Assembly: GCA_044892525.1 (NCBI GenBank) | Contig: CM097885.1 | Span: 22,632,001-22,696,000 of the forward strand | Length of the DNA stretch: 64,000 nucleotides | Source: Schmidtea polychroa | Taxonomy: Eukaryota | Reading direction: 5' to 3' | In this document: positions 11,487 to 42,274 of the stretch, one piece after another | Layout of the letters: each line of letters starts with the position of its first letter | How positions within the stretch are numbered: position 1 is the stretch's first letter | Notes under the pieces: model-generated | Seen by the model: only the letters and a program-made list of their open reading frames with translations | What the model was told of the DNA's origin: nothing | Database searches by the model: none | Made by a program: the position numbers and the translations under genes

Positions 11487-13524
<2,038 letters not shown>

Positions 13525-17489: not shown

Positions 17490-19951
17490 TTGGAAAATTG
17501 GCTTAAAGTGGAAGAAAAAGTATAAAAATTCTAAAATTTTGAAAAATGCTAGACAAATTTTGCCAAAAACGGGACACTGGACATTTGATGAAAATACAGG
17601 ATTGTCCCTTGAAAATACCAGCAGATGGTCACCCTAACAATGAATAAACGTGAAATTCCGTTAGAATTCTTTAAATATATTTTAAAATAGACTTTATATA
17701 GTTAATGAATTAGACAACCAATATATATAAGCCAATTTTCCAAGGGGGTCGCAAATCAAAACTACCTACTAAGTTTTTCATTCAAATTTTAGCAACACAT
17801 TACAAGAGGTTAATAAGTTTATTTCTAAAATGCTCAAGTTTGAAATATGTAACATTAACTGGGTTTTTTACTCGAAGATTGTGAACAATTAGCATGAAAT
17901 TGTAGGGACCCGCTGACTTGAAATTCATTTTTGATTGTTAGGAACTTTTGTGTTCATCTTCTCATTAATGGATATTATATGAACAATATCTTTGAGAAGT
18001 AACTTGCTTTATTTCAGAATAACTTCGTAAATATACAACAGGTTGTTATTCGATGGGTCAGAATCTTTATACATTTTTTGGTCAGTATTTTAAATAAATG
18101 ATCAGTACCAAAATATTAAATGTCAGTAAGTAAAATAAATAATCGGTGTAGTTAAAATGAAGTATCAGTAATAATAATTACAATGCCAATTGAAAAGAAA
18201 TCAGTGGTGAAAATTGAAAAAAGTCCTTAAAATATTAACAAATATATATCAGTATTTTTATTTAATAAACAAAAATATGAATTATAAAGAAACCCCAAAA
18301 AGGTATAATACGTTTGTAATTTTTCTAGTTTTATCACAGGTTGGATTTATACTTCTAATTTACAATTGAACGTTCCAAAAGAAGGCGAAAAATGTAAAAT
18401 AAGTATTCTATAATAATAATATCCTTTCGGATATATAGAAGCACAAAACACAATTCCTCTAAGGATTGAAATGAGCATTACTCTTTAAAAGATAATAAAA
18501 TAAAGATAACACTTTATGTTGATAATGTTATTCTTTATTTTCAAAGTCATATTTTTAAGGTTTATTCTTATTTTTTATTCTTTTTTTTACATTTTGAAGG
18601 ATAAACCTAAGGATAAATTTAAAATTCAATAGTAAATCCTCACATATCTTATATAAAACAGGTTTAGTGTAAATAATGTTTCTTTTAACGTTATTTTTAG
18701 CAACACCCTGGGTTCAAGAACACAACAGAAATGTGTTAAACGTGATATGTATGTATAACATTTATTATGAGTTTTTCCGGTATGCATTTCAATGAAAAAG
18801 ATATTTTATTTCTAAAATAGTTGACACTCGATAATTGACATTAAGCTGAAATTTTCCCAAAAGGCAAATAAATCACACTAACTTATTATTGGACTTAACC
18901 GAATCGTTAAAAATAAAATTGCGACAAAAGACAATAGATGAAAATAATAAATTCTAACTTGATATGTAGAGCAGAGGTCTGACAGTAAATTTGACCGTAA
19001 ACGTGCTGCATAAAATAGGATTGATGATATTAAAATACCCATCTTACACACAATTCAACAGATTATTCTCTAGTTTTTTATTTGAAAATCACTTTTAGTA
19101 GGGACGATTTTACATCTGTATAAAGTAACTATGAAACGTGCTTTATTGTAGATTGTAAAAGTTACTTGTCCTTTAAGAAATGGTTGGAATTTAAAAACAA
19201 CCGTTGTAACCATTTGGAATTTTGACAAAAAATCGATGATTAAAAAAATGCACTTTATGTTCTGTGAAATATTGAGGCGAAAATTTAATTGAAAAACTTT
19301 TAGTAATTAATATTGCATGCAAATTAGCTATTATATAAATATAGATCTAACGAAAGACCTATTAGAAATATATTTTAATATTTTCGAACAAGTGAAAAGA
19401 ATAAACTTCCATGCCAATATAGAATATCATATACAAGTCAATTATAAAGTAATAAATGAAAAAAATTACCTTTTTACTAGGCGAAGTTTCCCTGAATAAA
19501 AATATAACAATGAAATCAAACAAAATAAAATAACTAAATGAGTTTTAAAATATAAACATTAGTAACTCAAAATTATAATTTCTATTTTTTATTTTGCCTT
19601 TTTAGAATTTAAAAATTGGGATTTTAATAAAAACTGTTAGAAGCTATAACATTTAATTCTTCTGTCATCAAAATAAATTACTAAGACTATTAAATCCAAA
19701 ATTATATTTCATTAAATCTGATTATATAAACAAATATTCTTGGGACATTTTCTAAATTTTAATTTCAACCAAATATCAACATACCATCGCATTCATACTT
19801 GAATTTCAATTTTATTAAAGATTATTTTATTTTAAAATTTCAATTATCATTTCAATTTTAATATCTTAAAATAATTTAAGTTTCAATTAAAATTTTACAA
19901 ATTTTAATCATGAACTAATTTAATTTAGTATTTTAATTTTAACTCCTCACA

Positions 19952-20970
19952 TCCCCCTTTTTTAAAATGTTTGATCTTCTCAACATTTCTGACTACCATC
20001 TTCCCATTTTGATCTTTAAGTAAGTAGCTCCGTTCATGTATTTTCTTTATCACTTTGTACGGCCCTTCCCACCTTGCATCGTCTTTATTTCGAATTTCTT
20101 GTTTGATCAAAACCAAATCTTCCATTTCAAAATCTCTCACTGTTTTGCTTATTTTTGGTTTTAGTGTTTTATCCTCTATTCTCTTTTCCATATCTTCTCT
20201 ATTTATTTCTTTATTCGAGTACCATTTCATTCTGTCGATTTTCCTCCCAAATATAATCTCTGCTGGCTTACTCCCGTTGTTTTTTGAACTGTTGCATTTA
20301 AAGTATATTCTATTTCTGGCACTATATCAGCCCAGTTTTTCCTTCCTCCTTCATTCAATGACGCGTTAACATACTCTCTGATTGTTCTGAATTGTCTTTC
20401 AATAATACCATTCGTGTTATGGTGATATGGGCTTGAGAAAATTAATTCAATGCCAGCTGCCTTTGCTAGTTCTTTTATACTTCTTGCTTCAAAGTTCTTC
20501 CCACAATCTACATGAAGTTCTTTTGGAGCTCCAAACGGTAATATCCATTTATTTAATAACGTCTCACTAATTGTTTTTTCGTCTTGCTTGTTTATGGCCG
20601 TTAATGAGATGTATTTACTATAGTGGTCAATGATTCCGCAAATATATTTCTTTTTGTTGAATGTTTCTTTCAATGGCCCACATATATCCATATATATCTT
20701 CTCGAATGGTTCTGTACTCTTTATTGTTTGAGTTTCCTCCTTTGTCTTGGTTGTTATCGTTTTCATTTTCTGACATCTTTCGCCGTTCTCAATTACCTTT
20801 TTTACTTCCGTTGCTAAATTTTCCATGTCGCAGTTATTCTGGATATATTTCGTTACTTTCTGTGCACCTGCATGGCACAGCAATACGTGTACTTCTTTTA
20901 TCATCCTCTGTCTATTATCTGACGGTATCCATATTTTACCTTGCTTAGTTAGTACCGTGTTGTTTTCCAT
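19952..20970 (-). pseudogene. Gypsy integrase, frameshifted relative to RT and again near 20230-20260
   Basis: H-x3-H zinc-binding region (one Cys replaced by G), MDICGP, IDHYSKY, HVDCGKNF, NGIIERQFRT, WEGPYKV (GPY/F). Confidence 0.88.
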
Positions 20971-21005
20971 TATGAACTTACAATCTTTATTTTCTAACTT
21001 ATTCT

Positions 21006-22514
21006 TTATTTCTTGGACCTCATATTGTCATTTTGCCACTTGTTATATCCGCCTTCTGCTGTTACTGTTAATATTCTGGTTTTAATTTTGCCGGTTTTTG
21101 GGTCTTCGTGTTCCATCATACACTGTACACATGTTCCGCATGTTTTCCTGGATAGCATATCCGCGTTTGTATGGCTTGTTCCTTTCCTGTATTCCATTTT
21201 AATATCCAGGCTGCTTAAATAGTTGATCCATGTCTGGAATTGAGCAGTTATTGGTTTCTTCGTTGTTACCATAAACGTAATAGCTTTATGGTCCGTTCTC
21301 AGTACGAATCTCTTACCATATAAGTAATGGTTGAAATGTTTACAAAAATAGTATATTGCCAATAATTCTTTTCTGGTAATGCAGTATCCTTTTTCGTGGC
21401 TGCTCATCGCATGTGAACCATATGCAATGACATGTTCATGTCCTTTTTCATCCTTTTGCGAAAGAACTGCTCCAATAGTATCGAAGCTCGCGTCTGTGTC
21501 TAATATAAATTCTTTTCTGAAATCTGGAAATACCAATACTGGGGCGGTTATCAATGCTTCTTTCATTTCCCCGAAAGCCTTTTCACACATCTCTGTCCAT
21601 CTTATTTTCTCATTGTTTTTTCCGCATATGCTTTTTAGTGCTCTTGCCTTCTTTGCATAGTCTTTTATGAACCGTCGATAATAGTTACATATACCCAGAA
21701 AGCTCCTCAGATTCTTTACACATTTTGGCTTTTGAAATGATTGTATTGCTTCTATCTTAGTATTATCTGTTTGTATGCCGTCTTTATTTATTATGTGTCC
21801 CAGAAATTTCACTTCTTTTCTAAATATTTGACATTTTTCGGGGTTCAATCTTAGTCCTGCTGTTGCGATCTTCCCTAGGACTTTTCCAAATATGTTATAA
21901 TGGTCTTCTTCTGTCTTTGTGAATATTAGGATGTCGTCTAAATATACCATCACTCCATCTTTCCACAAATCTTTCAATACTTTCGTCATTAATTCTTGAA
22001 ATGTTCCTGGTGCCGCTGCAATACCGAACGGCATCCTGTTAAAACAGAACTGTCCTTCTTTTGTTGAGAATGCTGTTTTCTCTTGAGATTCTTTATCTAA
22101 CTTCACTTGGTAATAAGCATTTCCCAAGTCGATTGAGCTAAAATATCTGGATCCGTGTAGGATGTCTAAAATTTCATCTACATTTGGCATTGGAAATGCT
22201 TGTCTTTCTGTTATCTTGTTTAATTGTCTGAAGTCTAGACAAAGCCTGATGTCTTTTTTCTCTTTCTTCCATACACAAACTAAAGGTGTGTTCCACGGTG
22301 AATTACACTTCCTAATTATTCCGTTGTTTTCTAGATTTTTTATTGCTTCCTCAATCTTGTCTTCCAAATTTATTGGCTGACGTCTCGGTTTAATCATTAT
22401 TGGCTCTCCTTTCGTGATGATCTTATGTTTTCTCAGATTGGTACACCCAATGTCCCATTTATCTGCCATAAAAACATTCTTGTTTGCCTGAAATATTTCT
22501 TTGGTTGAAATCAA
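21006..22514 (-). CDS. pol: Pol: reverse transcriptase + RNase H (no protease domain)
   Basis: RLCLDFRQLN, MPFGIAAAPGTFQ, VYLDDILI, DTDAS, KELLAI, TDHKA, NADMLSR. Confidence 0.93.
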   Translation of the reverse strand: MISTKEIFQANKNVFMADKWDIGCTNLRKHKIITKGEPIMIKPRRQPINLEDKIEEAIKNLENNGIIRKCNSPWNTPLVCVWKKEKKDIRLCLDFRQLNKITERQAFPMPNVDEILDILHGSRYFSSIDLGNAYYQVKLDKESQEKTAFSTKEGQFCFNRMPFGIAAAPGTFQELMTKVLKDLWKDGVMVYLDDILIFTKTEEDHYNIFGKVLGKIATAGLRLNPEKCQIFRKEVKFLGHIINKDGIQTDNTKIEAIQSFQKPKCVKNLRSFLGICNYYRRFIKDYAKKARALKSICGKNNEKIRWTEMCEKAFGEMKEALITAPVLVFPDFRKEFILDTDASFDTIGAVLSQKDEKGHEHVIAYGSHAMSSHEKGYCITRKELLAIYYFCKHFNHYLYGKRFVLRTDHKAITFMVTTKKPITAQFQTWINYLSSLDIKMEYRKGTSHTNADMLSRKTCGTCVQCMMEHEDPKTGKIKTRILTVTAEGGYNKWQNDNMRSKK

Positions 22515-22520
22515 TATTAC

Positions 22521-23642
22521 TTAGTAAATTGCTCCGATCAATGTCCCGTTTGACGGAGCGTGCTCGTTTGGGTCATTCTCCCTGTTATACTCGTCTAGCT
22601 GGCTTGACTGTTTTGTATTCATCATCTCATCATCAGACTCGATAGCTGCAATATCTTTTCTGTTATATTGTTGGTTTCCCCATTGTCTTTGATGTACGTT
22701 CCTTGATTGATACATATCTTCCCTTTGTTGATAGGTATTTCTTTGAATTCTTCCTCCTGACATCTTCCTTTGGTCTCGATCTCTTCCTTGATTTCGTCTT
22801 TCCATATTTGTGTAGCACTCTCTTTCTTTGTGTCCTCGTGCATTGCATCTATGACATTTGATTGTTGGGCATTCTCTTCGTATGTGACCTTCAACACCAC
22901 ATGCATAACATTGAAATCTTCTTTTTATATTACATTCTCTGCTACTGTGTCCCGGTTTTTGACACGTCCAGCATTCTATCACTTTAATTCTTGTCTCTGG
23001 TTTCCATTCGTTGATTTTTCTCTTCGTGGCTCCAACTTGTACTACATCTCTATAAGTTCTTCCCCCAGTTGTAGGTCGTATTGATCTCACCGTGTTTACT
23101 TGTTCAATAACCTTGTTAACTTTTTCTATCTTCTTTATAGTTTCTTTAATTTGTTCCGCCGTTTTGAGATCTTTCATTTCGATTTCTTTCCTGACTTCTT
23201 TATCTTTTACACAATGTGTCAATAAACATTTCTGAATTTCTTCCTCATTCCAAGTGTGTGAGGCCAATTTTTTAGTCATTTTTGATATTTTCTCTATAAA
23301 TATTTCCGCTGATTCGTTACCTTGCTCGTAGTTCAAGGCTTCTCTTAAGTCATCAATCAATGACGTTGGTCGATGAAAAGCTGCTCTTAATTTCTGTTCA
23401 ACGGTTTTACCTTCTGCGGTTTCATATTCTTCAATCAAAGTCCTGTCCAGAAGTGTAATAACTAGTACCATTTGTGTCTTCACTGGTGTCTTCGTTATTT
23501 CAAAGAACCTCTGACATTCTTTGATAAATAATTCGAGGTCATCTCCTCTGTGGAATTTTTCTGGAAGTAATCTTCCAATAAGCAGATCCGTTGGAATGGT
23601 CGCCATGTTAGAAGCTATAACATTTAATTCTTCTGTCATCAA
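22521..23642 (-). CDS. gag: Gag with three CCHC zinc knuckles
   Basis: CWTCQKPGHSSREC, CYACGVEGHIRREC, CHRCNARGHKEREC. Confidence 0.9.
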   Translation of the reverse strand: MMTEELNVIASNMATIPTDLLIGRLLPEKFHRGDDLELFIKECQRFFEITKTPVKTQMVLVITLLDRTLIEEYETAEGKTVEQKLRAAFHRPTSLIDDLREALNYEQGNESAEIFIEKISKMTKKLASHTWNEEEIQKCLLTHCVKDKEVRKEIEMKDLKTAEQIKETIKKIEKVNKVIEQVNTVRSIRPTTGGRTYRDVVQVGATKRKINEWKPETRIKVIECWTCQKPGHSSRECNIKRRFQCYACGVEGHIRRECPTIKCHRCNARGHKERECYTNMERRNQGRDRDQRKMSGGRIQRNTYQQREDMYQSRNVHQRQWGNQQYNRKDIAAIESDDEMMNTKQSSQLDEYNRENDPNEHAPSNGTLIGAIY

Positions 23643-26600
23643 AATAAATTACTAAGACTATTAAATCCAAAATTATATTTCATTAAATCTGATTATATAA
23701 ACAAATATTCTTGGGACATTTTCTAAATTTTAATTTCAACCAAATATCAACATACCATCGCATTCATACTTGAATTTCAATTTTATTAAAGATTATTTTA
23801 TTTTAAAATTTCAATTATCATTTCAATTTTAATATCTTAAAATAATTTAAGTTTCAATTAAAATTTTACAAATTTTAATCATGAACTAATTTAATTTAGT
23901 ATTTTAATTTTAACTCCTCACAAAAACCATTTTTATAAATGACTTTTTTCAAAATATACACTATTTCCATATTCAATATTCTATAAGCAAACAAATATGT
24001 ACAGTGCTTAATAGTTGCACACATACATTTTAGTGGTGCAGTCAAAACCACGGGGCAAATGGAAAATACATCTGGTTCTATCAACATAATTTAAAGTTAA
24101 TTGTGGTTTGAAATTATTTAACTATAAAAAATGTTACGTGAATATGACATAAATTTTGTCTACTTACAGCTAATTCAATTTGAAAATGGTGTAAAATAAT
24201 TTTAGAAACATGTTTAACATGTCGAATTTTCTCATGAATTATGGGTAGGGTTGTCATATTTCCTAAAATTCCAGGAGTTTACAGGAATTCGACCTAGTAA
24301 GAAGCGTACGTCTGGAATTAAGGAATTTTATGATTCGTAGATAATCGAGTTAAAATTATAATTATACTCCACACTTTTTTAGTGTATAAGCAATATTTCT
24401 TGATAATTTTAGGTTACTTATACCGTATTATGCTGAATTTTTTCTGCAATACAACTTCAATTAACAAGAATGTTAACTAAAGCACAGCAAAATTCAGCTG
24501 GAATACAAAAAATTAGCTTAGTAATGAAAAACAACTGAAATAAATCTTTGTTTCATACAGTTTTTTCGGCAATTTTCCAGAATCTCCCGAAAAGTTCAAG
24601 TCGTTTGGTACATTGAGTGATTATTGGCAAATTATGTTACTATTTAACAATTATATAATGAATAAAATAATTTATAAAAGATATTTTAGGCCTTTGAAGA
24701 ATGTTTAAAGTTTATTAGAAACAAAAGTCAGATTTTTCGACTATGAAATAGTTCTCTTCAATCTACTGCTACCAAGAAATACTCATTTTATATAAATTAA
24801 ATTATTAAAATTCTAAATTAAAACATGGAAATTAACCATTAATTATTTACTCAATTTAGTAATTCCAATTTGTAAGTGATATGGTGTTGAAAATATTTTC
24901 TAAAATGCCGAAACATCACAAAACTTGCAGAAATTTTGCCAAAAGCTTAAAATTATATTATTCCCTCAATTATTCGGAACTATTTTTATAACTCCGAAAC
25001 ATATCTCGATTCGATAAATTATTTTTTCAATATTATTAGTTTCTTATCAATAAATTTCTTCCAATATTCAACGATTAGATATCGCAAAATTAAATCATAG
25101 AAAACTAATCAGAAAAAAATGAAAAATATATTTTCATAAAAGAAATATTTTTGTTATAATCACTTAAAATAATTTTATAATAAATCGTCGGTAGCCCAGT
25201 TATTTATAAAAACATAATTCAAATAAACAGGGAAGCTTTATACGCATTGTTGATTAATTGAAAATTTTCGGCCAAAAATAGATTTTTTCATTCAAATATG
25301 AAATTTAGCTGATCTAAAAAACGAAAGAAGAAAATTAAAAGAAAATATTTCTAAAAAATCTTAAATTTCGTATTTCCGTTTAAGATAGAAAATATTTTAA
25401 TTTTTAACTCAACAAAATATTAACTGTTGATCGTAGCACACTTCTATAAACACGCCCATGAACATTTTCAAAACTGGCGTTCAAAGTCGAAATGTTTTTT
25501 TTTGCATAAATCAATGCTTTTAGCCTGAAGTATTTGTATATGATCTTTTCTGAATCAAATAATATATATATATATATATATATAAATACAATTTTCCTTT
25601 AAAAACAAAGCGCAGAGTTATTCCTTTTATATAAATATTTATATTTAACATTTCATACTTACGTACAACACTTTTACCCTGTTTAGTTATCTGGCTAAAC
25701 ACACTAAAAATTAACTTTTCCTTCTAAGTTTATTTTAAAATATTTTTTTTATTTATAAACAATTTTATTTTCTATAGTCTTTTAGAAGTATATAATTTAT
25801 ATTATATTAAATTAAATTAATATGTTTATAAAATATTTAAAAAAAATTTTTTTACTACGAAATAAAGTTTAATTATTGTATTATCATCGGGGCTACGTAA
25901 GTCTATTGGATGTGGAAGGTCATCAAAATTTGATTATACAATGTAACCTTAACAAACTAACACAGTTACATTTAAAGGAAGCACTATTAAATTATAAATT
26001 AACAATAATAAATTTCAAAGTCATACTAAGAAACGAAAAACATAATAGATCAGATAAACGTTTTATGGTGTAAAGTTACTATTATTTTTCAAATTTTATT
26101 TAAAAAACCCATTGAGCAACAAAAATAATTAAAAGAAATTTAAGAATTATATGAAGTAAAATTCAGCAATTCCCAGTAACAAATAAATGAACCTGAAAAA
26201 GAAAATGAATGTCCACCACTGATTTTGAATACGGAAGACCTTAATTGGTTTAAAGATGAATTTGATAATCAGAATGAACTTGTTCAGCGAACTATATCGG
26301 TACTACCATAGGTAAATATGAGCTCTTTAAGACAAATATAATCCCAATATCAGTGATAAAATTGATTAAGACAATTAAGTTATCATTACTCATGTACTGA
26401 CATGAAAGTTTTACCATAATTCAGTCAATGGAAGTATTTATCGATGAAATATATTTATCTATTTGAGATTAGTATGTTTTTGTTTTTCAATAAAATATAG
26501 TTTATACAATTTCAATTGTTATCGTTGATGTATTTTTGCATCACTAGTTTCTTCAACAATATCAAAACCTTTTAGTAAAATGAAAAAATACAAAAAATGC

Positions 26601-26990
26601 ATGACTACTGTAAAAATAGTGTCTATGTAGTGAATATGACATTGGATTTTGCTCATATCACTGCTTTAAGGACTGCTCCATAGCTGTACTTTTTAATTAC
26701 TGAATTTTGTTTAAATTATTGTGATAAAGAAATGAAATACTTTGAGAAAACCAATCCTTGTACTTGCTTTTTATTTGTCAAATAAGAAATTCAAAGAATA
26801 TATGAGCAAATGTAATTACGCACTTGTTAAAAAGAATAAACATAATTTCTTATTTCAAATTCCCACATATGCAATTGCTACATTTTTAATATTCTATTAA
26901 TTCCTCTTCCAGAAAAATCTCACAGACATACGATTAATGGATAAACAAATGCACTAAAACAAATATAAAACATATTTAAGGGGAAAAATA

Positions 26991-26998
26991 ATGCAAAT
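26991..26998 (+). promoter_or_regulatory. Octamer ATGCAAAT ~200 bp upstream of U1-like start (possible snRNA distal element)
   Basis: Exact octamer at -203 relative to 27194, the spacing typical of vertebrate snRNA DSEs; could be chance in AT-rich DNA. Confidence 0.4.
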
Positions 26999-27193
26999 TG
27001 ATTGCATACTTTACCTGCTATACTGGAAATCACATCACTTGCAAATTAGCTAAATCACAGAAAAAATAATTGCAAACTTGTAAACATGGCGTATGAAAAA
27101 TCATATTTGCCTCTGGAGACACCGTCTATATACAGAAACTGTTTACAAGTGCATTTTTACAAGTATGCAATAGAGTTGAATCAGCAATATTGT

Positions 27194-27310
27194 ATACTTA
27201 CCTGGCGCGAAGAGAAATGTTCGCTTCTCCTGCATAGTACTGATGAGAGCCAAAAGATCGAAACTAGTCTACTATTGGAATTTGCACTAGGTATCACAAA
27301 GCTTGTAATG
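27194..27310 (+). ncRNA. U1 snRNA 5'-headed RNA containing a minimal type I hammerhead ribozyme (27234-27275)
   Basis: ATACTTACCTGGCG start; hairpin GAGAA-ATGTTCGC-TTCTC; then ATAGTA-CTGATGA-GAGC-CAAAA-GATC-GAAA-CTAG-TC-TACTAT; ends at a (TA)n tract. Confidence 0.8.
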
Positions 27311-29527
27311 TTTATAATATATATATATATAGACTTACTTTTATAATTATGATAAAAATGAATGTTGTTGCCAGTATAAGAATTTGAGTAACAGTAGCAA
27401 AAATATAAAAACTAAAATGTAATTTTTTAATGATAGAATGTAAATATTTATATAAACTGAAATCATTTCCTTTTGATTATCAAGTTAAACCGTCAATAAA
27501 CACTTATTAACTATTTTTGAAAACGCAGGAAATCGTATTTTGACATCCACTTATTCCGACAAGAATCTGTGTTTTGTTGCTCTCAGTTTGTAGAAACCAG
27601 AAAAAACGAATATTAGATCATTTACTTTAACTTAAATTTACATATTTTCTATTTCCAAAAATCTTCTATCAAAAGTTTTTGGAATATTTTTTAATTAAAA
27701 ATATATTTTTTCGTATAATTTTTTTCGATGAAACATTTTCTAATTAGATATCAATTTCATACGAATTTTGGTTAACGCCCTAATACTCAAAAAATTAAAA
27801 ATATATTTCATACAAATCGTATTTGATGTAGTTTCATATTATTATTAATAATAATAATATAATATATTATATAACTTAGATACATTCCATGCTGGTTTTA
27901 TGCGGTTTATTTCTTTGCGATTTTTTTATGAGACATTTTTTATACAGTATTAGAAAACGCATAAAAAATTGCATAAAACTAAACCGTATGAAGTGTACTT
28001 TTAATACTTTAAATACCATAAATCGGTAACACTAACTAAATTATAGGTCTAAAAAAATAATTTCGGTTAAAAAATTATAAAATTAACTCTTCAAAAATAG
28101 GAAATTCTTCAATTCGCTTCGATCCTTCTGGCCACAACAAATCATTTTAGTTTTTTTAATAGGATTCCCATCAAAATAATTTCCAATAAATTTTTCCATG
28201 TGAAATATTTTCACTTAAATTTTTCACTTATTTTGTTTTTTAATTTTTGCTTTTCATTGAAATTCCCGTTTCTACTATTTACTTAATTTGTTTTAGGTTC
28301 CATTTTAGTGTAATAATCAATTTCATTTTATTGGTTCACTTGAAATTTATATTCTTATTTGTTATTTAATTCTTTTTGGTAATTGTTAATTGTTGGTAAT
28401 GTTATTACTATTTCATCTTAATTTTTATTTATTTACATTATTGCAACCTCAACTATATAAGAAATCATCATTTTATACTTATATACTAGTGGTACTCAAA
28501 CTATGTGTCGCTTTGAAATTTTTAATTTGAGTATAAAAAAACATTATTTCAGAATCTGTCAAAAAGTAAAATTAGATAAAAATAACAAAAATTTCCCCAA
28601 ATTTGGCAACAGAATGCAATTCAATTTTTCTTTCAGTTTTTTCAGATTTTTAAAAATTAGTAAACTTTTTTTTAATTTGTGCCCTGACATAATTTTGCAA
28701 TATTAAATATTATTTTTGTTTGGTTATTTAATTGTATTCAACTTATATATAGACCAAGCATTGAAAACTAAAAGACTAAATACTGATTAAATCCACTAAA
28801 TTTAATAAGTCCTGAATTATTGAATATAGTGGTATTTTGTTACAATTTATCAGCAATGAAACAAAAAATAAACAAACTTTATTTCTTCTGTGACGATATC
28901 AGTCATGGACAAAAATTCGTCATGGGATGTCAAGCTGCCTTGCCAGCCAATTGAGACATCTAAACGTATTTTAAAACAATAAAAGTTTTTCATCAGTAAA
29001 AAGTACAAAATAATTAATTTTAATTCGAATTTTCTGCCAACCTCTATTTAAATAGAAATGGAGCGATATTTACAATAAGTTACACGATAATGAGAAGATA
29101 TAAAAATCCGATTTTAACCACTTTATTGAAAAATATACCAATATTTCTTAAGTTCGAGTGAAAATAATCCCCGAGTTTAACCGTTGGATTAAATTTGGAA
29201 CCAGTTTTTCAGATGTAATTATAAATCAAAAATTATTAAAGAAAATTTACCATCCTTAATAAAATATATTTTTTATAATATAGTAAAAATAATATAGTTA
29301 CAATGGGAAACCGTTAAATTTCCCGCAGATGATCACAACTTTTAATTTACTTAAAGAAATATATTTAAAAAATCAAAAAGTTACATTTAAAAAAGTACAG
29401 AATTTGAGCAATTTGAAAGAATTTTCATAAATGTCATTCTAGTATACTATGTTGCAATACTGCATACTATAGCTAGATATAGTGTGCATTTTATTATTTA
29501 TTATTATTATTATTATTACATATCCTG

Positions 29528-29960: not shown

Positions 29961-30899
29961 AGTAGTGTGTATATATACCCAACCAACACAACCCTCCCAA
30001 CAAAAACATACCTCCATTACGCTTAAACCATTGGAAAAACAACATAAAACCTATGCTTTTATAGTATTTTAACCCCATATTTTAAACAACAACCACCCTT
30101 AATCTTTAAAGCCTCAAACTCAAAAGCTTCAAACTAAAAAGAGAATAGAAAAGAAAATGGCATTATGAAAAAGTTAGAGGGCTATTTGGGATAGGGCTAT
30201 ATACACACTACTGATCGTAATCAAACTCCGGAGTCGATCTTTATCAGATTATTAATTTTAAATTATAAAAATTAAAAAATAAATGAAAAATAGTAAAACT
30301 GCTCTGAGGGGACAGTGGTATTTTTTTTTTCACTGTCCCCTCAACAGTTTTTTTGATCCGGATCATTTCAACCTCTTTCGTTTATCAAATCTCTTCTAAT
30401 ATACAAGCTGGCCAGACTCATACATCAGAATCAATCCGATAATAGCAGCACACCTTATTATTCGCTTCTCGCTCGAATACGATTTCATCGGCGTTTTAAG
30501 TGTGCTGCTCGAAAGTACAAATGAATTCGAAAGTGAATCCGAAAGAGGTCCGAAAACAACTGAGAAATAAATGTGCACATTATGGAATCGATCCGGGGGT
30601 GTTCGAAAGACAGGTGGCGATAATTACCGGTTCGCCACCATCACCCGTTTCAATAATTTTTTTTTCATATTTATGTTTAAAAAATAAAATAAAATAAAAT
30701 AAATAAAATAAATAAAATAAAATAAAATAAAATAAAATATACAACTACTTTATAAATCTAAGATACCCACACTATTATTTTCAAATTTTTAATATTATTT
30801 TATGTTGAAAAAAAACTAACCACAGTTAGGATTTGAACCACCATCCATTTGAACCACTGTGCCAGTCTAGCCCACTGCGCTATCTAGGTTTGGATTTTT
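29961..30899 (+). repeat. Polinton left TIR (~940 bp)
   Basis: Reverse complement of 42275-43200. Confidence 0.95.
30808..30889 (-). ncRNA. tRNA-like Pol III unit A (left TIR copy)
   Basis: Minus strand: A box TAGCGCAGTGG, two GGTTCAAAT B-box motifs, T8 terminator. Confidence 0.6.
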
Positions 30900-31136
30900 C
30901 TCATTTTTTAGACTATAAATAATCGATTCAAGTTCTTTAACTCTTTCCTGTAATTGTTTCATTTTCTTCAATCTTATATCAGCAACATCTACAGCCTTCA
31001 TATAAAAATGTCGATACTTTTCATTATCTACCATCAACTCTTTGATGTATTCTAATGGTTCTTCTTCTCTTCTTTTCATTCTCTTATGTTTAACTTCATT
31101 CAATTCATTTCTCATTCTTTCTTTTAACTCATCCAT
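30867..31136 (-). CDS. Small coiled-coil Polinton protein, unknown function
   Basis: 89-aa charged helical ORF with AAAAATG start context; shares upstream ATATCCAATAAAA motif with polB. Confidence 0.6.
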   Translation of the reverse strand: MDELKERMRNELNEVKHKRMKRREEEPLEYIKELMVDNEKYRHFYMKAVDVADIRLKKMKQLQERVKELESIIYSLKNEKNPNLDSAVG

Positions 31137-31298
31137 TTTTATAAATATTTTTTTATTGGATATATTAATTTTTGGTAGCTTAAGTTAAAACGTTTTTGAT
31201 CTTAAATTTCCAAGAGTTGCCGTTGACCAATCACCTTAAAAATTTGTACAAGTACTAAATCGAGTATGCTGATCAATATTTCGTTAAAAAAAAATTTG

Positions 31299-31378
31299 AA
31301 AAAAAATGACCGAAATGGGATTTGAACCCATTGGTATTGGCAATGCAGTCGAGTGCTATTACCACAAGCTATTAGAGC
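31299..31378 (-). ncRNA. tRNA-like Pol III unit B (tRNA-Cys-like)
   Basis: GCTCTAA-TAGCTTGTGGTAATAGC-A-CTCGA-CTGCATT...ATGGG-TTCAAAT-CCCAT-TTCGGTCA-T8; D and T arms pair, anticodon and acceptor stems are poor. Confidence 0.65.
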
Positions 31379-31540
31379 TATACTCAATATAAAATAAGTT
31401 GTTAATGTGTGACTATTTATTGATGAAATTAATAATTAATTATTCATTTTCTCGACAACTACCACTCAGATCCATCTGAAAATTTAAATATATACTAAAA
31501 TCAGTACGCTGAATCAGATTCCGTTGAAAAAAAAATATCG

Positions 31541-31622
31541 AAAAAAATTGACCAAAATCGAAAATTGAACCCGGTACTCCCGGTGATAAAATTGAAGCCT
31601 ATTCCCACTCCGCTATAATGGC
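31541..31622 (-). ncRNA. tRNA-like Pol III unit C
   Basis: GCCATTA-TAGCGGAGTGG (A box) ... CCGGGTTCAATT (B box) ... GGTCAA-T7; contains internal T4 runs. Confidence 0.5.
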
Positions 31623-31678
31623 TTACATAATATATTTAATTAATCCTATTTTGTGTGTGTAAATTTTAATATATAAAA

Positions 31679-32817
31679 ATGAATCTCTTCAAACATCAAA
31701 CCCTATAGATATTTGTAATGCCAAATTATATTATAAAATCGAATTAGAAATTGAAGCAAACAAAGATATAACCCTAGAAAATAATTTCTTTCCAAATTTA
31801 TTCTCCAACATGAAATTAAAACTAGGATCATCAGAAATTGAAACTGTTTTACATCCAGGAGTATATTCTACAATGTTAAATTTTATTTTGACTGGTTGTG
31901 ATTATAAAAATGAATATGGTGAATTAACAGGCTGGATTCCTGATGTTAATAAAGGAGATTTAGATAAAAATGGTTTAGATATAAATTATGGTTACTATAA
32001 AAGAGCTGAACTTTATAAATCTAAAAAATTTGAAGGTTATTTTGAATTAAAACACTTATTTGGATTCATTCAAAACTATAATCGTATACTTCATAATGTT
32101 TTTATAGAATTAGTTTGTAATAGAGTAGAAGGTGATAAAAGATTGTTCTATGGAGCTGCAGATACAACAGCTAAATTAAAAATATCGACACTTGAATTGC
32201 ATATACCTGAATGGACATTAAATCCACATTCCGAAATCAAACTCCTTGAAAGATTAAATTCCAACAAGTCTATAAATGTAAATTATTTAAATAGAATCTG
32301 TAGTGAATTTAGTATGACAGAGGGTTCAACATATTCTATAAAGGTAGCAAATTTAGCATACCGACCAAGATATATCTTGATTGGATTCAAAGAAGTAGAT
32401 TCATCTTTCCAAAAAAATAACAACTTCTTTATTCAAAAGATTGGAGTTGATAATTTAAAAACAATCCAAATTCAATTAAATAGTTCTTATTATCCAATAA
32501 ATAGAATGGAATTTAATATTGAAAATAATGAAAACATATTCCCATATCTAAATTATATTGAAACATGTTATGATTTTAAAGTTAAACCACAATTAAGTTT
32601 AGAAGATTTCAAAAATTTATATTCTATATTTTGTATAAATGTTTCAGACCAAGATGATCGCCTAGCCATAAATAATGTTGATGTTACACTTCATATAACA
32701 AAGGATTCTAATTTTAAAGCTAAAGTATATACATTAATATTAGAAGAAAAGAAAATAGAAATGAAATTATATGGTGGAAAGATTTTAATAATCGAAAATG
32801 TTAGGGGAGATTCTTAA
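31679..32817 (+). CDS. Polinton major capsid protein (double jelly-roll/hexon-like), N-terminus apparently deleted or frameshifted
   Basis: ITLENNFFPNLFSNMKLKLGSSEIE...PG, LKHLFGF, RPRYILIGF, QIQLNSSYYP, YSIFCINVS resemble Polinton MCPs; upstream AAAAATG at 31679 is out of frame with the ORF. Confidence 0.8.
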
Positions 32818-32834
32818 TATTTTAACATTTTAAA

Positions 32835-34192
32835 ATGTCTCTCTATTGGAGATGTGAAAGTTGTAATTGTCAAGTTACAAGACATCATAAAGCAAGTCAT
32901 CTAAAAACTTAAAAACATATAGGAGGCGATCTACAATCTTCAAAAGTGACATCTTCAATATTAAAACCTTTTACTACAGAAAAATATCCAGGTGAAAGAC
33001 ATTTATTTAAACACAACTATACTGGACCAGGAACAAGATTAGATATTAGATTAGATGAAAATAATAATCCCAAACAAGGAGAAGAACCAATAAATAGAAT
33101 CGACCAAGCAGCTTTAAAACATGATATTGCTTACAATTCAGAAGATCTTAGAGATAGACATGTTGCAGATGTTAATTTAATACATGATTTAAATAGTATC
33201 CAAAATCCATCAACCCAAGAAAAGATTCAAAGAGCTCTAGTTAAATTAGCAATGAAAGGTAAGATTTTCATAGGTGCTAGTTTACCAAGGATGGCAAAAA
33301 ATGTTGCTAATAAAAAGATTATTGAACAAGCAGATGCTGAAAGATCCCTCGAGAATATATCCAAGACTAGTTTATTAACCCCAACAGAATCACAAATAAA
33401 ATATGCCAACGAATTACACCATGAATTTAGAAAAAATAAAAAATATTTAAAAGTTCAAGTACATGAAAAAGATCAAACATGGTCTGCAGATTTAGTCTTT
33501 ATGCCAACCAAATCATCAGACCCTGAAAAATATAAAATAATTTTAACTGTAATAGATTTATATACAAGATTTGCCTTTGCAAGGTGTTTAGAAAATAAAA
33601 CAGGATATTCCATTACAGAAGCATTTGAAAATATATTTGAAGAACATCAAAGAATTCCAAAATATTTATGGAGTGATAAAGGAACAGAATTTTATAACAA
33701 AGTTTTTACAAAGTTTTTAAATGAAAATGATATTAAATTATATTCAACAGAAAACGAAGGAAAAGCAGTTGTGGTTGAAAGATTAAATAGAACATTAAAA
33801 AATAAAATGTGGAAATATTTTACGGCTATTGGAAAACAAAAATGGAACAATGAATTGTTACAAAAGATTGTAAATGAATATAATAATGATGTACATAGTT
33901 CTATAAAATCAACACCTTTAAATGCTTCCATAAATCCTGAAACCATTAAAGTGGTAAATATTGAAAATGATGTTATTGAAAAACCAAAGTTTAAAATTGG
34001 TGACCGAGTAAGAATATTTAAATATAAAAATAAATTTGAAAAAGGATTCACAGCAAAATGGACAAATGAAATTTTTATTATAAATAAAATAAATTATACA
34101 ACTCCAATAACATATAGCATCATTGATTTAAATAATGAAAAAAAATATTAGGTAGATTTTATAATAATGAGTTACAGAAAACAGATTTCTAA
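32835..34192 (+). pseudogene. Zn finger + parvovirus-type PLA2 + retroviral-like (rve) integrase fusion
   Basis: ATG 32835 CESCNC..HKASH, in-frame TAA at 32910; NYTGPGT...INRIDQAALKHDIAY (PLA2); WSADLVFM, VIDLYTRF, WSDKGTEF, VVERLNRTLK (DDE); KFKIGDRVRI...FEKGFTAKWT; A-run frameshift near 34141. Confidence 0.9.
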
Positions 34193-34590
34193 AACAAACT
34201 TTTCCATATTTCAGCTTCTTCTCTATCCAAATAAATATAATTATATTTTTCTCTCCAATGATTATCAACAAACATATCAAACATATTCTTATCAGGTTCA
34301 ACATTTGAAAATAAATCATTATAAATCATATTCTTATCACGGCGATCTGATTTAAAAAATATAAAACAATTGGAATTATTTCTTATTGAATTTTTATCTA
34401 AAGCATAATATGTTTGAGATATATAAATAACATTACAATTATTATGTCTTCCTCTTGTAAAGTAACTCTTTTGGATCTCTTGATTTTTCATGTTAACAAC
34501 ATCATCAAATATAACTAGATTCTTTTTATCTTTAGGAAGTAAATCACAATGTAAAACATCTTCAGGTTTATTAGAGAATAAAACTTGAAT
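34189..34590 (-). pseudogene. A32/FtsK-like packaging ATPase, C-terminal half only
   Basis: KNLVIFDDV (Walker B), FTRGRHNNCNVIYISQTYY, IRNNSN; no Walker A upstream of ~34590. Confidence 0.85.
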
Positions 34591-34644
34591 CGTTAAGAAA
34601 GAAATGTTAAGAAAGAAGAAATTGATAAATATTTAAACTTAATT

Positions 34645-34907
34645 AATACATGGTAGTTCTAAAGCAAAACATATTCAAGATTTAAAGAATTATTTAAATA
34701 AAAATGAAAGGGGTTATGTTGTTACAGAGGGTAAGGAGATGCCTGTGGCTGCAAACCCAATCAATCTTTTTATTGAATTAAGAAAACTATTAGCAGCTAA
34801 AAAAGCAGGACATAATAATTTAGATTCTGATATTTTAAAGATTTCTAAAGATTTGTTAAAACAAGGAATAATTTCAAAAGATAAATTTAATAAGTATATA
34901 AAATGAC
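34645..34907 (+). pseudogene. C-terminal remnant of a conserved Polinton/adintovirus virion-core-type protein (gasderminX-like)
   Basis: Manual translation ANPINLFIELRKLLAAKKAGHNNLDSDILKISKDLLKQGIISK resembles the DPNELxxRLxLLxASKxAGNN...LxxxGII motif as recalled; no start codon. Confidence 0.55.
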
Positions 34908-35390
34908 TCCTTCAATATTAGATTTTTTAAAAACATTTGGAATAAATGCAAAAACAAATTTTGATTTAAAAGATTATGCAGATTATTTAAATTTAAAAAT
35001 AAAAATATTAATGAATAATGAATTGAAAGGTCCAAAGGTCAAAGGTCAAAGGGTCACTCCAAAGAATATAATAATCAATTATCAAAATTCAAATGAAAAA
35101 GGATCTCATTGGGTTTGTATATATATATGGACGAAGTCCCAATCTACTTTGATTCTTTTGGGATTAAACCCACTAAAGAAGTTGAAGACTATCTGTCCGG
35201 AGTAAGCTCGAAGAGAGACTATACTTTTAATTCTTTACAAGTTCAACCTAATAATACTAAAATATGTGATATTTTAAGCTTATATGTTTTGTATAGATTG
35301 AATAAATCTCAAGGGACTCTGTCCAAAGGGGACTACTGTTTCACTTCCTTAATCCAAGAAATTTATAATGATTTAAAATCTCTACTATAA
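34903..35390 (+). pseudogene. Adenain-like cysteine protease, frameshifted in an (AT)n run near 35120
   Basis: IIIN...GSHWVC, then YFDSFG..P and QVQPNNTKICD in the next frame. Confidence 0.85.
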
Positions 35391-35393
35391 GAA

Positions 35394-36132
35394 ATGGAAG
35401 ATAATTTAAAAAAAATGGTAAACATAATGTCAGATAAATATTCAAGAACTTTATCTATAAATTCAAAAGAATCAGACTTTACTATAAATTTTGAAGATTC
35501 AATAAAATTAGATCAAAATTTAAATTATGAATTAGGTCTATTATGGTTTTGTGCTTATAATACTATTTTTAATATAACTAAAGATATTAACACATTTAGT
35601 TATGTAAGCCCCCCCCCAAAACGGAGTATAACATAATAATAATAGAACCCGGGGCTTATGAGATAAAAATTTAAATAATATACTTTCTAAAAAAACAAAT
35701 GGAGCTATTGAAATTAAAATAGATTTACCAACTTCAAAATGTATAATGACTTTAAAGAATATAGGACTTAGGTTTCAAAATAATAGTTTCTTTAGAACAA
35801 TTTTAGGATTTACACAAAACCATTATACCACACCTGAAGTTACATCAGAAAATATTATAAAAATAATAAATACAAACACAATAAATATTCATTGCGATTG
35901 TATAACAGGTTCTTATAATAATGGTAAACAAAGTAATATTTTATATTCCTTTCCCTCAAACACAGTTCCTATGGGATATAAAATAGTTGAAAGAATGAAT
36001 CCTCCAAATTATTTACCTTTATGTAGAAAATATATAATGGATATTAATTTTAAAATTCTTAACCAAGAAGGAGAATTGATTGATTTTAATGGAGAAGAGA
36101 TTTCAATGTATTTACATTTGAAACAGGTTTGA
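35394..36132 (+). pseudogene. Minor capsid protein (penton-like single jelly-roll), frameshifted near 35610-35670
   Basis: SDFTINFEDSIKLD..YELGL, PGAYEI, INIHCDCITGSYNNGKQSNILYSF, ILNQEGELIDFNGEEISMYLHLK. Confidence 0.82.
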
Positions 36133-36156
36133 AGATTCATTTTAAATTATTAATAA

Positions 36157-37146
36157 ATGAGTTCTTATATTCCTTGTAATAGAGGTGGTGGAACAATAAA
36201 AACAGGGTTTAATACAGAAGAAATATTAACTTTAACAGAAAATAAATATATTAATGAAAGAGGTGATTCAATGAAGGGAGATTTAAATTTAAATGGACAC
36301 AAGATAAAAGATTTATCTTTACCAATTGATGAAGGTGATGCTGCTAATAAAAATTATACTGATTTAACAACAACAAGAATTGAAAGTTCATTAACAACAA
36401 AAATTGATTCAATGGAATCAAAGCTTAATAATATCGAACAACGATTTAATGATAAATTTGACAAGTTACAAAGTCTGTTAACTGAACAAGTTGTAAAGTT
36501 AAATACTAGTATATTAAATTCTAAAGATAAACAAATTATGAATACTAAATTTAATACAATATATAATATAATAAATGAGATGATTACATCATTTAATAAA
36601 AGACTTTCAAATTTAGAGTCTCATACAACACACATTAACACCACACATAGTATTAGAAAAAGAGCTGCTGAATTAGAACAGAATAAAACATTATTACCCC
36701 ATACATATAAACATTTTATAGAACCAACTTTAATAACAACAAATAGTAAAGAATGGAGTGTTTTTATGGCTGTAAAGATTATTGATCCTTATTTCTTTTT
36801 ATTTGATGATGATAATGAAAGAATGAAATGGTTTGTGAAATGTGATTATAATAGTAAGCTTGAAAAGGGTGATGTTATAATTACTGCTTATGATTTACCA
36901 CACGGAGATTGGTATGTTAATACTCATTCACATGGACTACATAAAGTTAAAAGTAAGAATATTATTTTTAAAAGCACACTTGTACAATATATAGATTTAA
37001 TATTTTATGAAAAAAAGGTTGATGTTGATGAAGTTCGTAAAGCATTGATGGAATTGTATAAAGATATTCTCTCAACAAGAGTTTCTTTTGATATCCGAGT
37101 ATTGGTGCCAGATGGTGCTCAGAAGAATAAAGTCTTATTTTTTTAA
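36157..37146 (+). CDS. Putative fibre/spike-like protein
   Basis: GDSMKGDLNLNGHKIKDL...DAANKNYTD fibre-type repeat, long coiled coil, unrelated C-terminal globular region; follows the penton gene. Confidence 0.6.
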   Translation: MSSYIPCNRGGGTIKTGFNTEEILTLTENKYINERGDSMKGDLNLNGHKIKDLSLPIDEGDAANKNYTDLTTTRIESSLTTKIDSMESKLNNIEQRFNDKFDKLQSLLTEQVVKLNTSILNSKDKQIMNTKFNTIYNIINEMITSFNKRLSNLESHTTHINTTHSIRKRAAELEQNKTLLPHTYKHFIEPTLITTNSKEWSVFMAVKIIDPYFFLFDDDNERMKWFVKCDYNSKLEKGDVIITAYDLPHGDWYVNTHSHGLHKVKSKNIIFKSTLVQYIDLIFYEKKVDVDEVRKALMELYKDILSTRVSFDIRVLVPDGAQKNKVLFF

Positions 37147-37154
37147 TTATTAAA

Positions 37155-37733
37155 ATGGAAGAAGTAAGAGAAGAAAAAATTTACCCAGAATTGTCATCAA
37201 GATATTATTCTTCCAAGGCTCCCTCAGCTCCCACAGAACTTGAAATTATGAGAGTAAAAGAATTTAAGTCAGAAACCTTACATTTACAAGATTTATTAAA
37301 GCATTATAAAAAAATTAAAAATAGATGGAATAAAGGGAATACAGTTTTAAAAGTTATAGGTTATTCTTTAGGATTTGCATCTGCAATATTAACAGTTATT
37401 TTACCTATAACTTTACCAGTTTTAACAATTGCACCTGTAATACTTGGAAGTATTTCAGTAGCTGATGGTTTCCTAACTGAAATAGTTTCACTATCTTATA
37501 CTTCTAAAAAGAAAAGTTTATATCGTGAAGTTTGTTTATCAATAGAATTAGGAATCTCTAAATTATTTTTATTTCAATTAAAAGCTTTGGAAGATGGAAT
37601 CTTAACTGATGATGAAATAATGAAATCAAATCAAATAATACAAGATATTAAAAATAATATTAATAGATTGAAAAGTGCTAATGTTATAACTAATAAAAAA
37701 ATTAAACGAGAGAAATGGTTAAAGAATTCTTAA
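37155..37733 (+). CDS. Polinton membrane protein with hydrophobic hairpin
   Basis: IYPEL..APSAP N-terminus; hydrophobic VIGYSLGFASAILTVILPITLPVLTIAPVILGSISVA; ALEDGILTDDE. Confidence 0.7.
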   Translation: MEEVREEKIYPELSSRYYSSKAPSAPTELEIMRVKEFKSETLHLQDLLKHYKKIKNRWNKGNTVLKVIGYSLGFASAILTVILPITLPVLTIAPVILGSISVADGFLTEIVSLSYTSKKKSLYREVCLSIELGISKLFLFQLKALEDGILTDDEIMKSNQIIQDIKNNINRLKSANVITNKKIKREKWLKNS

Positions 37734-37844
37734 AATTATAAATATATAAAATGGATGCATTTTTAAAAAAAGTAGATCAGGTTGCTATAGTTGCTTAAAT
37801 TAATTGTCGACATTTTATTATTAAAAAATTAAATATCGTTGGTT

Positions 37845-40800
37845 TCAGTTATGGTTGAAAGCCAACCTATGAATCATTAATTTATGATCTTTAAATTCTT
37901 TATCACTTAGACCTTTTATATATTCAGAATCAGTATTAAAATATTTAAGTTCTAAACATATAGGATTAAAAACTTGAGAATATAAAGGCTTCTCGATTTC
38001 TCTCTCGGGATAAATAATTTCAACATTATAAATATCAAGATCGGTAATATTTGTATCATATAACTTATTCAACTTTTCTAGATTTTTTATTATCGGTATT
38101 AAAATTTTTCCAATAGGTAGAGTTGTCTTTAAATCACTTAGGATGAATCTTTTATCATCATAATTTGATAATGATACTTTTTGAGATTCTATCAAGTGAA
38201 TATCATGGTTTTCACTTTTAAGTTGATGTATTTCATCAATTTTATCTTTATGATTTGGATTCAATGTATCTATATAATCTTGATGAGAAAGATTCTTTGC
38301 AACTGATTTCTGTATTCCTTTACATCTGTTATCCTTTACAGGTTTTTCTTCTTGTCCCTCTGGTCCTTTAGGAAATATAGGATATCTATGTGTAATGGTT
38401 TCTTCTGTTTCTGGAGTTTTAAATATAAATGATCTAGTTATAAATTCAGGGTTTCTAAATGTTTCGTATGAATATTGTTTAGCACGAATAAATATTCCAT
38501 TTTCTATAGGAGTAAAAGGTTTTTCATCTTTAAACGAAAATAATTCTCCAGATGAATTTATTAAATTTGAAAGTATAGGATTTTCGGCTATATCTCTTTG
38601 TAAATCATGAGTTCTTATTGTTAAAAACATTGAATCTGTATCCATTGCATGCATTGATATATTAGAACCATATATAGGTTGTAAGATGTTATAATATGTT
38701 TCATACATTTGTAATTTTGAAAGTTCTAAAATTGAAAACCCTATAAATATTGGTTTGTTGTATGTTTTCTCAAAATTCTTTAGTTCTATTGCAGTAAGAC
38801 TTTCAGAAAATACTTGTGCGTTTTTAAATGTAGGCTTTCCTAGCATACGATTATAACGCTTAATGTCTTTGGTAGTATTTGTTAGGAGTTCAATATGAGT
38901 ATATTTGTCTACATTTTCCATTGTCTTCCCAAAGACTGAATTGTTTAAAAGTTTATAATTATTATCTTTAAAAAGGTTACCTTCTCTTTTTGCAATGTTT
39001 CGACATCTAATGTTCTCTTCGATAAAAGCTTTCATGAATGGAGCTTGTTTAAATCTTATGACACTATGAACTTTTTTTAATATCATTCCTCGTGAGAGAT
39101 AAAATTGGAGGAGTCTATAGTGACAAAGATAATAAGTTCGATCTGTTTGATCACAAAGAAGTTTCATTGTTGGAGGTTTATCTTGTGAGATTTGCCATTC
39201 AGAAAGTTCGTTGATATCAATCTTTCTTCTTACAGGAGCTAAAGGAAAATATCTTGTTCCTGATTTTATATCATCTGGATATAATAAGTCACATTCTACA
39301 AAGTAACCTATTGGAAAATCTTTAGGAGTTGAAAGTATTTCTTTCATAAGGTCTTTTAAGGATTCTTCTGAGGAATCTTCAGAGTATATTTCATGAAAGT
39401 CACTCATTGGTAAATATTGAGTCATAATTCCTGAATATAAAGCTGTTGCATCTATATAAAGTATAAATATAGGATTTTTCATTGTTTCTAATAATTCTTT
39501 TAATTCCTCATTGTTAATTTTCATATATGGATCATCAGGGTGTTTAGAGAGTCTTCGGCTAGTAGTTATTGCATTTCTAGCTTTTATTTCTCTATTCCCC
39601 ATTACTGAAGAGACTCCTCCTCTAATGTTTGTTTTAATTTGATTAAACATATCGAGGTTAGTTAAAAGATCTATAATTTTATCAGATTCTTCTATATTTG
39701 AAGTCCAAATGGTATATAATAAAGTATCCCAAGCTAAAGAGGGTGCTGTTATATAATTGTAAGGTTTAAGAACAAAAGATTTTGTAAATTCTTCAAAGCA
39801 ATCTGCTAGAATATAAACATCCAAGGATAAATACATGTTGGTATATTCTCCTAAAGTTTTACACTTGAATAATTCCCACATTTTATTTGCTCGAGAATAT
39901 TCTTGATCTGTAATATGATATTTTTGAAGTTGTGAATAGAAATCTTTTTGGCTAGGAAGACTTGTTTCATTATATCTTTCAAATGAATCAACATAGTCAT
40001 AAGGATATATTCCTTTTGCTAAGCATGTAGAATATTCTTCTAGAGGAATATTATTTTTTTCCAAGAATTCTCGAGTGATTTTAAAATTTTCTGGTTTCAT
40101 TGTTTTTGCTACTGCATCTAGAGACATTTGGAGAAAGTTTAACGAGTCTATAAATTTTAATTTTCCATATTCAACTGATTTATATTTTTCCTTTGTAAGT
40201 CCTATAACTTTGAAAGAGTTTTTAGCATTTTCTGCTAATTGTTTAATAAATAGATGTATGTCATAACCAAAAAGATTATGAAATATAACAGGTACAAATT
40301 TAGGAGTATGACAATTAAGATTACAATTTTTATGAGCTGCTCCTCGATAATTATTTTCCTTTTTTAAATGATCATGATCGAGGACTTTTATATTCGGAGA
40401 CTCTTCAAATGGTTGTTTACACATCCAACAGTTGGAAGTGTTTTCATATTCTTGTTGTTGTTGATTAGAAATATTTTGAGGATAGTTTGTTTTTAATACT
40501 TTAAATATTTCATGTTCTAGATCATTTATACTTTTAGTAAAATGATTCAAGACTTCTGTTTCTGAAATTCCTCGAAATGTATATTCTCTAGATTCTATGA
40601 GTTCAGGATAATTACTTTTAAATAATAATTTATAAGCAGATGGTAATTGTTTAGTTTTTTTAACACTATTAGGTTTATTCCTTTTTCTTAGAAAGGCTTT
40701 CATCCTCTCTGGTTTCATCTTCTCTCCTGAGGAGTTCCAGGAATCCATGAGTTTATTTTTTTCTATTATTTTTAAATATTGTTTAACCAAATCTTGTTTA

Positions 40801-42185: not shown

Positions 42186-42274
42186 TTTTAGAAAAAAAAT
42201 TTTTATTGGATATCCTGTTTTGATTTTTTATGTTTTTATATTTATTTTCATAATGTGACAGTATAAAAAATAAC

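Follow-up and report, generated by a model that had tools for sequence, protein, structure and literature searches.

A probable hammerhead retrozyme carrying a U1-like 5' end within its repeat unit in Schmidtea polychroa

How does the 5' end of U1 snRNA come to stand ahead of a hammerhead ribozyme motif, and might it still act there as a start of transcription? We investigated these questions at a locus (26991..27331) of the window, that is, the whole stretch of 64,000 nucleotides of Schmidtea polychroa DNA that was analysed. The original prediction had described it as a retrozyme- or SINE-like element that captured a U1 promoter and head. Its sequence identifies the locus as one copy, decayed and inverted on its 5' side, of a tandem repeat that has 372-378-nt units and a type I hammerhead motif; its features are as follows.

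26991..26998, + strand: ATGCAAAT octamer, in the flank, 2 bases outside the element, whose homology starts from 27001
27001..27154, − strand: inverted 5' piece of a monomer, about −181..−23 as counted from the U1 head (in blastn it matches the opposite strand of the L017 monomer, q122-280, 80.7%)
27036..27046, − strand: TTTGCAAGTG site, which is at −67, the position of an snRNA-gene motif, in uninverted copies and is here displaced and reversed
27163..27193, + strand: direct upstream part of the monomer (−31..−1); in full copies, the predicted pairing of −40..−22 with −6..+12 would conceal the head
27194..27209, + strand: U1 head, a 16/16 match to the start of the U1 variant L031/L033 of this genome
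27204..27227, + strand: GAAA-capped hairpin, 10 pairs in family copies, here with 2 substitutions (27219 and 27225)
27234..27275, + strand: canonical type I hammerhead with a palindromic helix III and a predicted cut after C27269 (C17); a C-to-A change at 27257 breaks helix II
27276..27315, + strand: 3' part, running as far as the nearer of the two fixed 3' ends (about +122), with TTTGCAC at 27281-27287 inside
27316..27331, + strand: AT-rich/(AT)n flank at the 3' junction, with (AT)n at 27317-27331 and no evident target-site duplication

The direct element segment (27163-27315) runs from −31 to +122 when the head is counted from +1, and the window copy is a partial solo copy. No open reading frame of at least 100 codons lies over the locus, and a 119-nt stretch taken alone folds no better than its shuffles (z 0.59). 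This copy is probably inactive, because its upstream part is inverted and its helix II is broken. The octamer at −203 had been taken for an upstream part of the element. However, the sequence between the octamer and the head is an inverted element piece, and the octamer is not part of the element; none of 46 other copies, some of whose loci overlap, has it at −230..−175, and its seven occurrences in the 64-kb window are not above chance.

The window also contains a Polinton/Maverick-like region (30800-42300) with a protein-primed DNA polymerase B (37845-42227, −), an integrase with a phospholipase A2-like domain (32913-34151, +) and a double jelly-roll protein (31663-32817, +). Broken Ty3/gypsy-like gag, RT/RNase H and integrase frames were recognised by eye from translations at 19925-23648 (−) and 50523-52504 (−). 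At another locus (L017), a young tandem copy of the repeat lies, by eye, near a Polinton-capsid-like frame (minus strand from the locus start).

We found the hammerhead elements where they had been placed: stem I ATAGTA/TACTAT (27234-27239/27270-27275), CTGATGA, stem II (27247-27259), GAAA and ACTAGT (27263-27268), with the C17 after which cleavage is predicted at 27269. An Infernal-type check with Rfam, as the original prediction had proposed, yielded a Hammerhead_1 match at 27234-27275 (24.5 bits, E 0.01), which is below the gathering score of 34, and no match to the U1 model. According to PMC4209133, canonical metazoan type I hammerheads have a 6-bp helix I, a 4-bp helix II and a short palindromic helix III, and they need a dimer. 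The motif had been called minimal, but by that definition it is canonical: copies of the family have a helix I of 6 bp, a helix II of 4 bp, the full core and a helix III of 1-2 bp with a palindromic loop. The single mismatch reported in stem II is indeed present here, but among eight aligned copies it is private to the window copy, as are the two hairpin changes. The predicted energy of the double hammerhead is −17.6 kcal/mol for a family copy versus −4.2 for the window copy.

A DNA likeness search of the species' own genome (781 Mb, four large contigs) gave 414 candidates, and the 40 that were scored are all 94-100% identical. The exact 28-nt family core occurs 943 times genome-wide and the exact 16-nt head 1,081 times, a few of the latter being true U1 genes, while reversed controls gave 0 in both cases. 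From 100 head and 87 core matches listed for the same 62 Mb, 37 of them shared, capture-recapture estimates a family of about 2,500 copies. The suggested BLAST-type check of copy number and boundaries thus returns about 1,000 exact motifs, an element boundary at 27001 and a 3' end at about 27315. Measured from cut site to cut site in tandem copies, monomers are 378 and 372 nt long; dimers and trimer(s) occur at a spacing of 371-383 nt, with one hammerhead per unit. Circular folds of three monomers are predicted to be 68-71% paired, with z values of −8.9, −6.6 and −8.7 against 40 dinucleotide shuffles each. Except for one fragment at L125, no attached Penelope frame was found in the element loci. 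The proposal of a non-autonomous retrozyme family is supported, and the repeat is very probably a retrozyme. We found no second U1-headed family in the genome: 18 and 56 matches with unusual bases before the head, 30 of the latter 56 having been fetched, belong to the same family. A metagenome scan for the head plus the hammerhead core gave at least 116 loci, with no convincing hammerhead among the matches listed. The canonical-hammerhead pattern with another helix II has one unrelated match in the genome, at L346 (G000:C1:174223318, minus); there helices I and II are closed and helix III is open, type III-like by eye, and no repeat context is seen.

The head motif ATACTTACCTGGCG at 27194 is the U1 5' end that had been predicted. 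The 16-nt head starts exactly at U1 nucleotide 1 and equals nucleotides 1-16 of a true U1 gene in the genome, and its match to another U1 variant is 18/20. The chance of the 16-nt match is about 6e-8 per monomer, and that of the five G/C bases past the donor-pairing part about 2e-4. Alternatively, the match might be an antisense consensus 5' splice donor that resembles U1 through complementarity, since the reverse strand of the head reads CAG/GTAAGTAT. We consider this very unlikely: the match begins exactly at nucleotide 1 and extends over those five G/C bases, it is 18/20 to the further U1 variant, and no joint at the donor is listed in the aligned contigs. The head very probably derives from U1. 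Its linkage to the hammerhead also holds in other copies, as had been predicted: among 30 core-picked loci (three of which share one array, and two pairs of which are related), 23 have it in register and the remaining seven are truncated or rearranged, and all 20 head-picked loci lacking an exact core belong to the family. Copies within the genome conserve the head no more strongly than the sequence next to it; the majority share in the head is 0.96 over nucleotides 1-11 and 0.87 over nucleotides 12-16.

Past the head, no U1 homology was detected against six U1 variants (p 0.24-0.69), and a U1 body (the four-stem structure, 70K and U1A loops, Sm site) was not found in the element. The hairpin predicted in the place of stem-loop I is present (27204-27227) but lacks homology to U1 stem-loop I. 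Likewise, TTTGCAC had been compared with the U1A loop; it is paired in the predicted monomer and altered in the consensus from a second organism, and we do not retain this assignment. An Sm-like run at +123 was also rejected as an Sm site, as it differs between subfamilies and the alignment past the head is at chance.

The true U1 genes comprise at least six strongly diverged variants, often paired (L031-L042, L116-L118). In some of them the splice-site-pairing end is changed (AAACTTACTTGG, AAACTAACCTGG) and could recognise non-consensus donors. On the minus strand of L033, some 190 bases past the L034 U1 variant, there is an orphan U1-like start, ATACTTATCTGGCGCGAAG; it is 18/19 identical to the repeat head and continues into unrelated sequence.

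Contigs of the second organism (organism B, run X6) bear on how the head has been kept. We aligned 147 of them to the L107 copy, in which the head is position 975. They align mainly from the head onward: four listed pieces start at L107 977, and in 13 contigs the sequence ahead of 977 (+3) is unlike that of L107. Over 977-1001 (+3..+27) no difference is listed, versus five near-fixed differences at 1002-1012. The head stays in register in the variants, a consensus of five contigs having CTTACCTGGCGC there and then an altered hairpin, and a low-depth relative aligns upstream of the head too. In organism B, the head thus appears to have been retained and the sequence ahead of it to have diverged, as judged from one run and from 30-letter consensuses with an agreement of 0.5-0.87.

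Retention of the head in organism B, together with about 1,000 exact copies, would fit a role at the RNA level. The released fragment or opened circle might pair with 5' splice sites or bind U1 snRNP proteins, or the head might mask the donor-like CAGGTAAAGTAT of the element so that its RNA escapes splicing. In the predicted +1..+76 fragment, nucleotides 1-10 are mostly unpaired and precede a hairpin, as in U1. However, the absence of homology to an Sm site, a 70K loop or a U1A loop argues against such a role, and in the circular monomer the head is predicted to pair with −40..−22, being paired in all three folds. Moreover, the donor-like GT is missing in 19 of 26 aligned positions at −35, and no RNA of the 76-nt size was seen. 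We regard an RNA-level function as unlikely.

We examined whether the head could instead mark a transcription start. The upstream regions of 13 distinct U1, U2, U4 and U5 genes share one positioned motif, (T/A)ATG(C/T)AAA, starting at −68 to −77, and a blind scan of the 13 snRNA promoters found one shared motif, at −78..−67, with a score of 87.5 versus 43-69 elsewhere. This motif, present at L031-L042, L061, L111, L113, L284 and L286, is a candidate proximal snRNA element of the lineage. In the repeat, TTTGCAAGTG stands at −67, the position of the snRNA motif. A hand-picked 7-site matrix gave p 0.006 for it, with sites chosen post hoc; this value is superseded by the blind matrix, with which the site scores 1.9 bits, a level reached by 21% of background windows. 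The site misses an A present in all 13 snRNA genes and scores lower in the youngest subfamily. In its favour, TTTGCAAGT[G/C] is the best site at −66/−67 in 12 of 28 element copies. The upstream region had been expected to resemble true U1 promoters, but it has no homology to any of 12 snRNA promoters (p 0.22-1.0). No repeat RNA is listed in runs on record as RNA. Contigs of three guessed-RNA runs (X1-X3) together span all 30 bins and close on themselves over 378 nt; we do not count them as evidence of expression, because tandem DNA also gives the 378-nt closure and these runs have no silent control. That the head is a working transcription start is a proposal that we hold tentatively.

The insertion ends indicate how the element moves. 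We compared 52 loci, consisting of 29 picked by likeness and 30 by core, minus seven duplicates. Their 3' ends fall at +122..+137 in 32 loci and at +153..+168 in 19, with one at +143. The 5' ends are spread, 18 of them lying past −201; an inverted piece is found in 20 of the 52 loci, and the flanks are often (AT)n or (ATA)n. None of the 52 loci has its 5' end at −4..+15; ends at +1 were found in two loci in a ±15 microsatellite test and in 5 of 48 preselected loci. The absence of a pile of 5' ends at +1 speaks against a SINE-like unit starting at the head, and a linear RNA starting there is therefore unlikely to be the usual template; a start in tandem arrays is still compatible with these ends. 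As 46 of the 52 copies begin upstream of +1 and continue through the cut site to +122 or further, we infer that the template is a circle or an uncut multimer.

Penelope-like elements are abundant in the genome (150 scored of 2,122 candidates). In five regions, frames 817-873 codons long occur along with a minimal hammerhead and a tail that has two ends. Intact RT/GIY-YIG frames, 873 codons long, carry the same two-end tail and are flanked by ATA. A two-site tail combined with AT-rich targets is described for a Penelope-like element in PMC11167929. Mobilisation by a Penelope RT, which the original prediction had raised as a possibility, thus gains support from the Penelope-type insertion marks and from an intact Penelope-like ORF in the genome. 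In blastn, the repeat has no homology to the one intact Penelope family examined, except for one neighbouring repeat copy, and no Penelope family sharing the repeat sequence was found among 30 loci. By eye only, the first Penelope end, GCGTTATCTTAT, resembles the first end of one subfamily of the repeat, ACGTTTATCTTAT. A degenerate, 5'-truncated Penelope-like element lies in the window itself (11616-13524), between two (ATA)n tracts and with a minimal hammerhead near 13462-13490; intact relatives occur elsewhere in the genome. Pfam returned nothing for the three broken Penelope pieces of the window.

Our preferred but tentative reading is that the repeat is a retrozyme moved by a Penelope-like RT, and that its head is a captured U1 start from which intact tandem copies are still transcribed. 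RNA synthesis would begin at the head under the control of an snRNA-type Pol II promoter lying within one unit. Two hammerheads would then pair via ACUAGU and cleave at +76 and again a unit further on, and the monomer set free would close into a circle in which a hairpin hides the head. On AT-rich DNA, a Penelope-like protein would use an internal priming site, at +122 or about +165, and copy its way round the circle. In this manner the upstream promoter would travel with the monomer, as it cannot do with a linear U1-headed SINE. A more far-reaching form of this proposal, which we regard as improbable, is that a selfish circular RNA took the start of a U1 gene (the promoter and first 16-19 nt) and kept it across species. 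Each round of transcription would then give a replicating ribozyme circle with its own snRNA promoter and a hidden U1 head, plus a capped 76-nt by-product whose free U1 5' end could compete for 5' splice sites.

Alternatively, the head may be a passenger of the same retrozyme. An RT template switch to the 5' end of U1 snRNA could have added it, a later fold-back could have made the pairing strand, and the head would be kept as part of the RNA fold while transcription came from read-through or another promoter. The end of U1 homology at the head, its pairing in all three circular folds, the frequent fold-back inversions of the family, the split promoter scores of the −67 site (0.006 post hoc, 0.21 blind) and the lack of a 5'-end pile at +1 are all consistent with this. 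On the other hand, organism B keeps the head while the preceding sequence and the 3' arm of the hairpin change, and the three subfamily-level hairpin differences all fall on the partner strand and none on the head, a weak indication from three changes only. We consider a passenger head doubtful, though somewhat more plausible than an RNA-level role; the element would then be an ordinary retrozyme with a curious scar. If, instead, the captured U1 start is still in use, the circularly permuted unit with its internal start would solve a puzzle noted for snRNA-headed retroelements in PMC4494074: since snRNA promoters are located ahead of the transcribed part, retrotransposition should leave them behind. 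This reading predicts capped 5' ends at the head. The transcription of animal retrozymes is largely an open question in the field. The roughly 1,000 exact U1 5' ends are also consensus splice donors on the other strand, which could bear on splicing for intronic copies.

To our knowledge, newt satellite 2 contains no U1 coding sequence. It is a hammerhead repeat that needs a dimer and is reported to be transcribed from an snRNA-type Pol II promoter of its own (Coats, Zhang and Epstein 1994, as cited in PMC2220036), whereas the promoter of the present repeat is only a candidate and the octamer at −203 is outside the unit. The Schistosoma Sm-alpha repeats (PMC2770079, PMC2220036) are likewise abundant flatworm repeats with a type I hammerhead and an internal promoter, the latter again a candidate here; unlike our repeat, they have a reported Pol III promoter and no U1 head in the descriptions available. 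The crocodilian SINEU elements (Kojima 2015, PMC4494074) share an snRNA-derived head, from U1 or U2, on a non-autonomous retroelement. In the text at hand, however, SINEU starts at its head, no promoter was found and the word hammerhead is absent, whereas the present repeat has only 16-19 U1-like nt inside a circularly permuted unit, and 46 of 52 copies extend upstream of +1. With Penelope-like elements that have hammerheads in their pLTRs, the repeat shares a pair of fixed 3' ends that follow the hammerhead at a spacing of about 40 nt, as well as AT-rich targets, 5' truncation with inversion and partial tandems (PMC4209133, PMC11167929). It differs from them in having no ORF and a canonical rather than minimal hammerhead, and its likenesses to the one Penelope family examined are short, AT-rich and confined to the ends.

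The closest relatives appear to be the metazoan non-LTR retrozymes (Cervera and de la Pena 2020, PMC7229834; Li, Clavereau and Pollet 2026, bioRxiv 10.64898/2026.07.22.740005), which have 150-450-bp units with one type I hammerhead each, low GC, tandem and solo copies, a self-paired predicted circle, co-occurrence with Penelope-like elements and no LTR. All of these are found in the present repeat, whose circle is a prediction and in which no target-site duplication was seen. A term search of the same texts, as available, gave no U1 or snRNA feature, and neither a U1 head on a hammerhead repeat nor the repeat family itself was found in the literature covered, mostly open texts without supplements and including PMC6466107. 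Unlike those retrozymes, the repeat has, 46 nt ahead of its catalytic core, an exact copy of the U1 5' end. The retrozyme class is therefore already known, and the U1 5' end inside the unit appears, at the level of sequence, to be its new feature.
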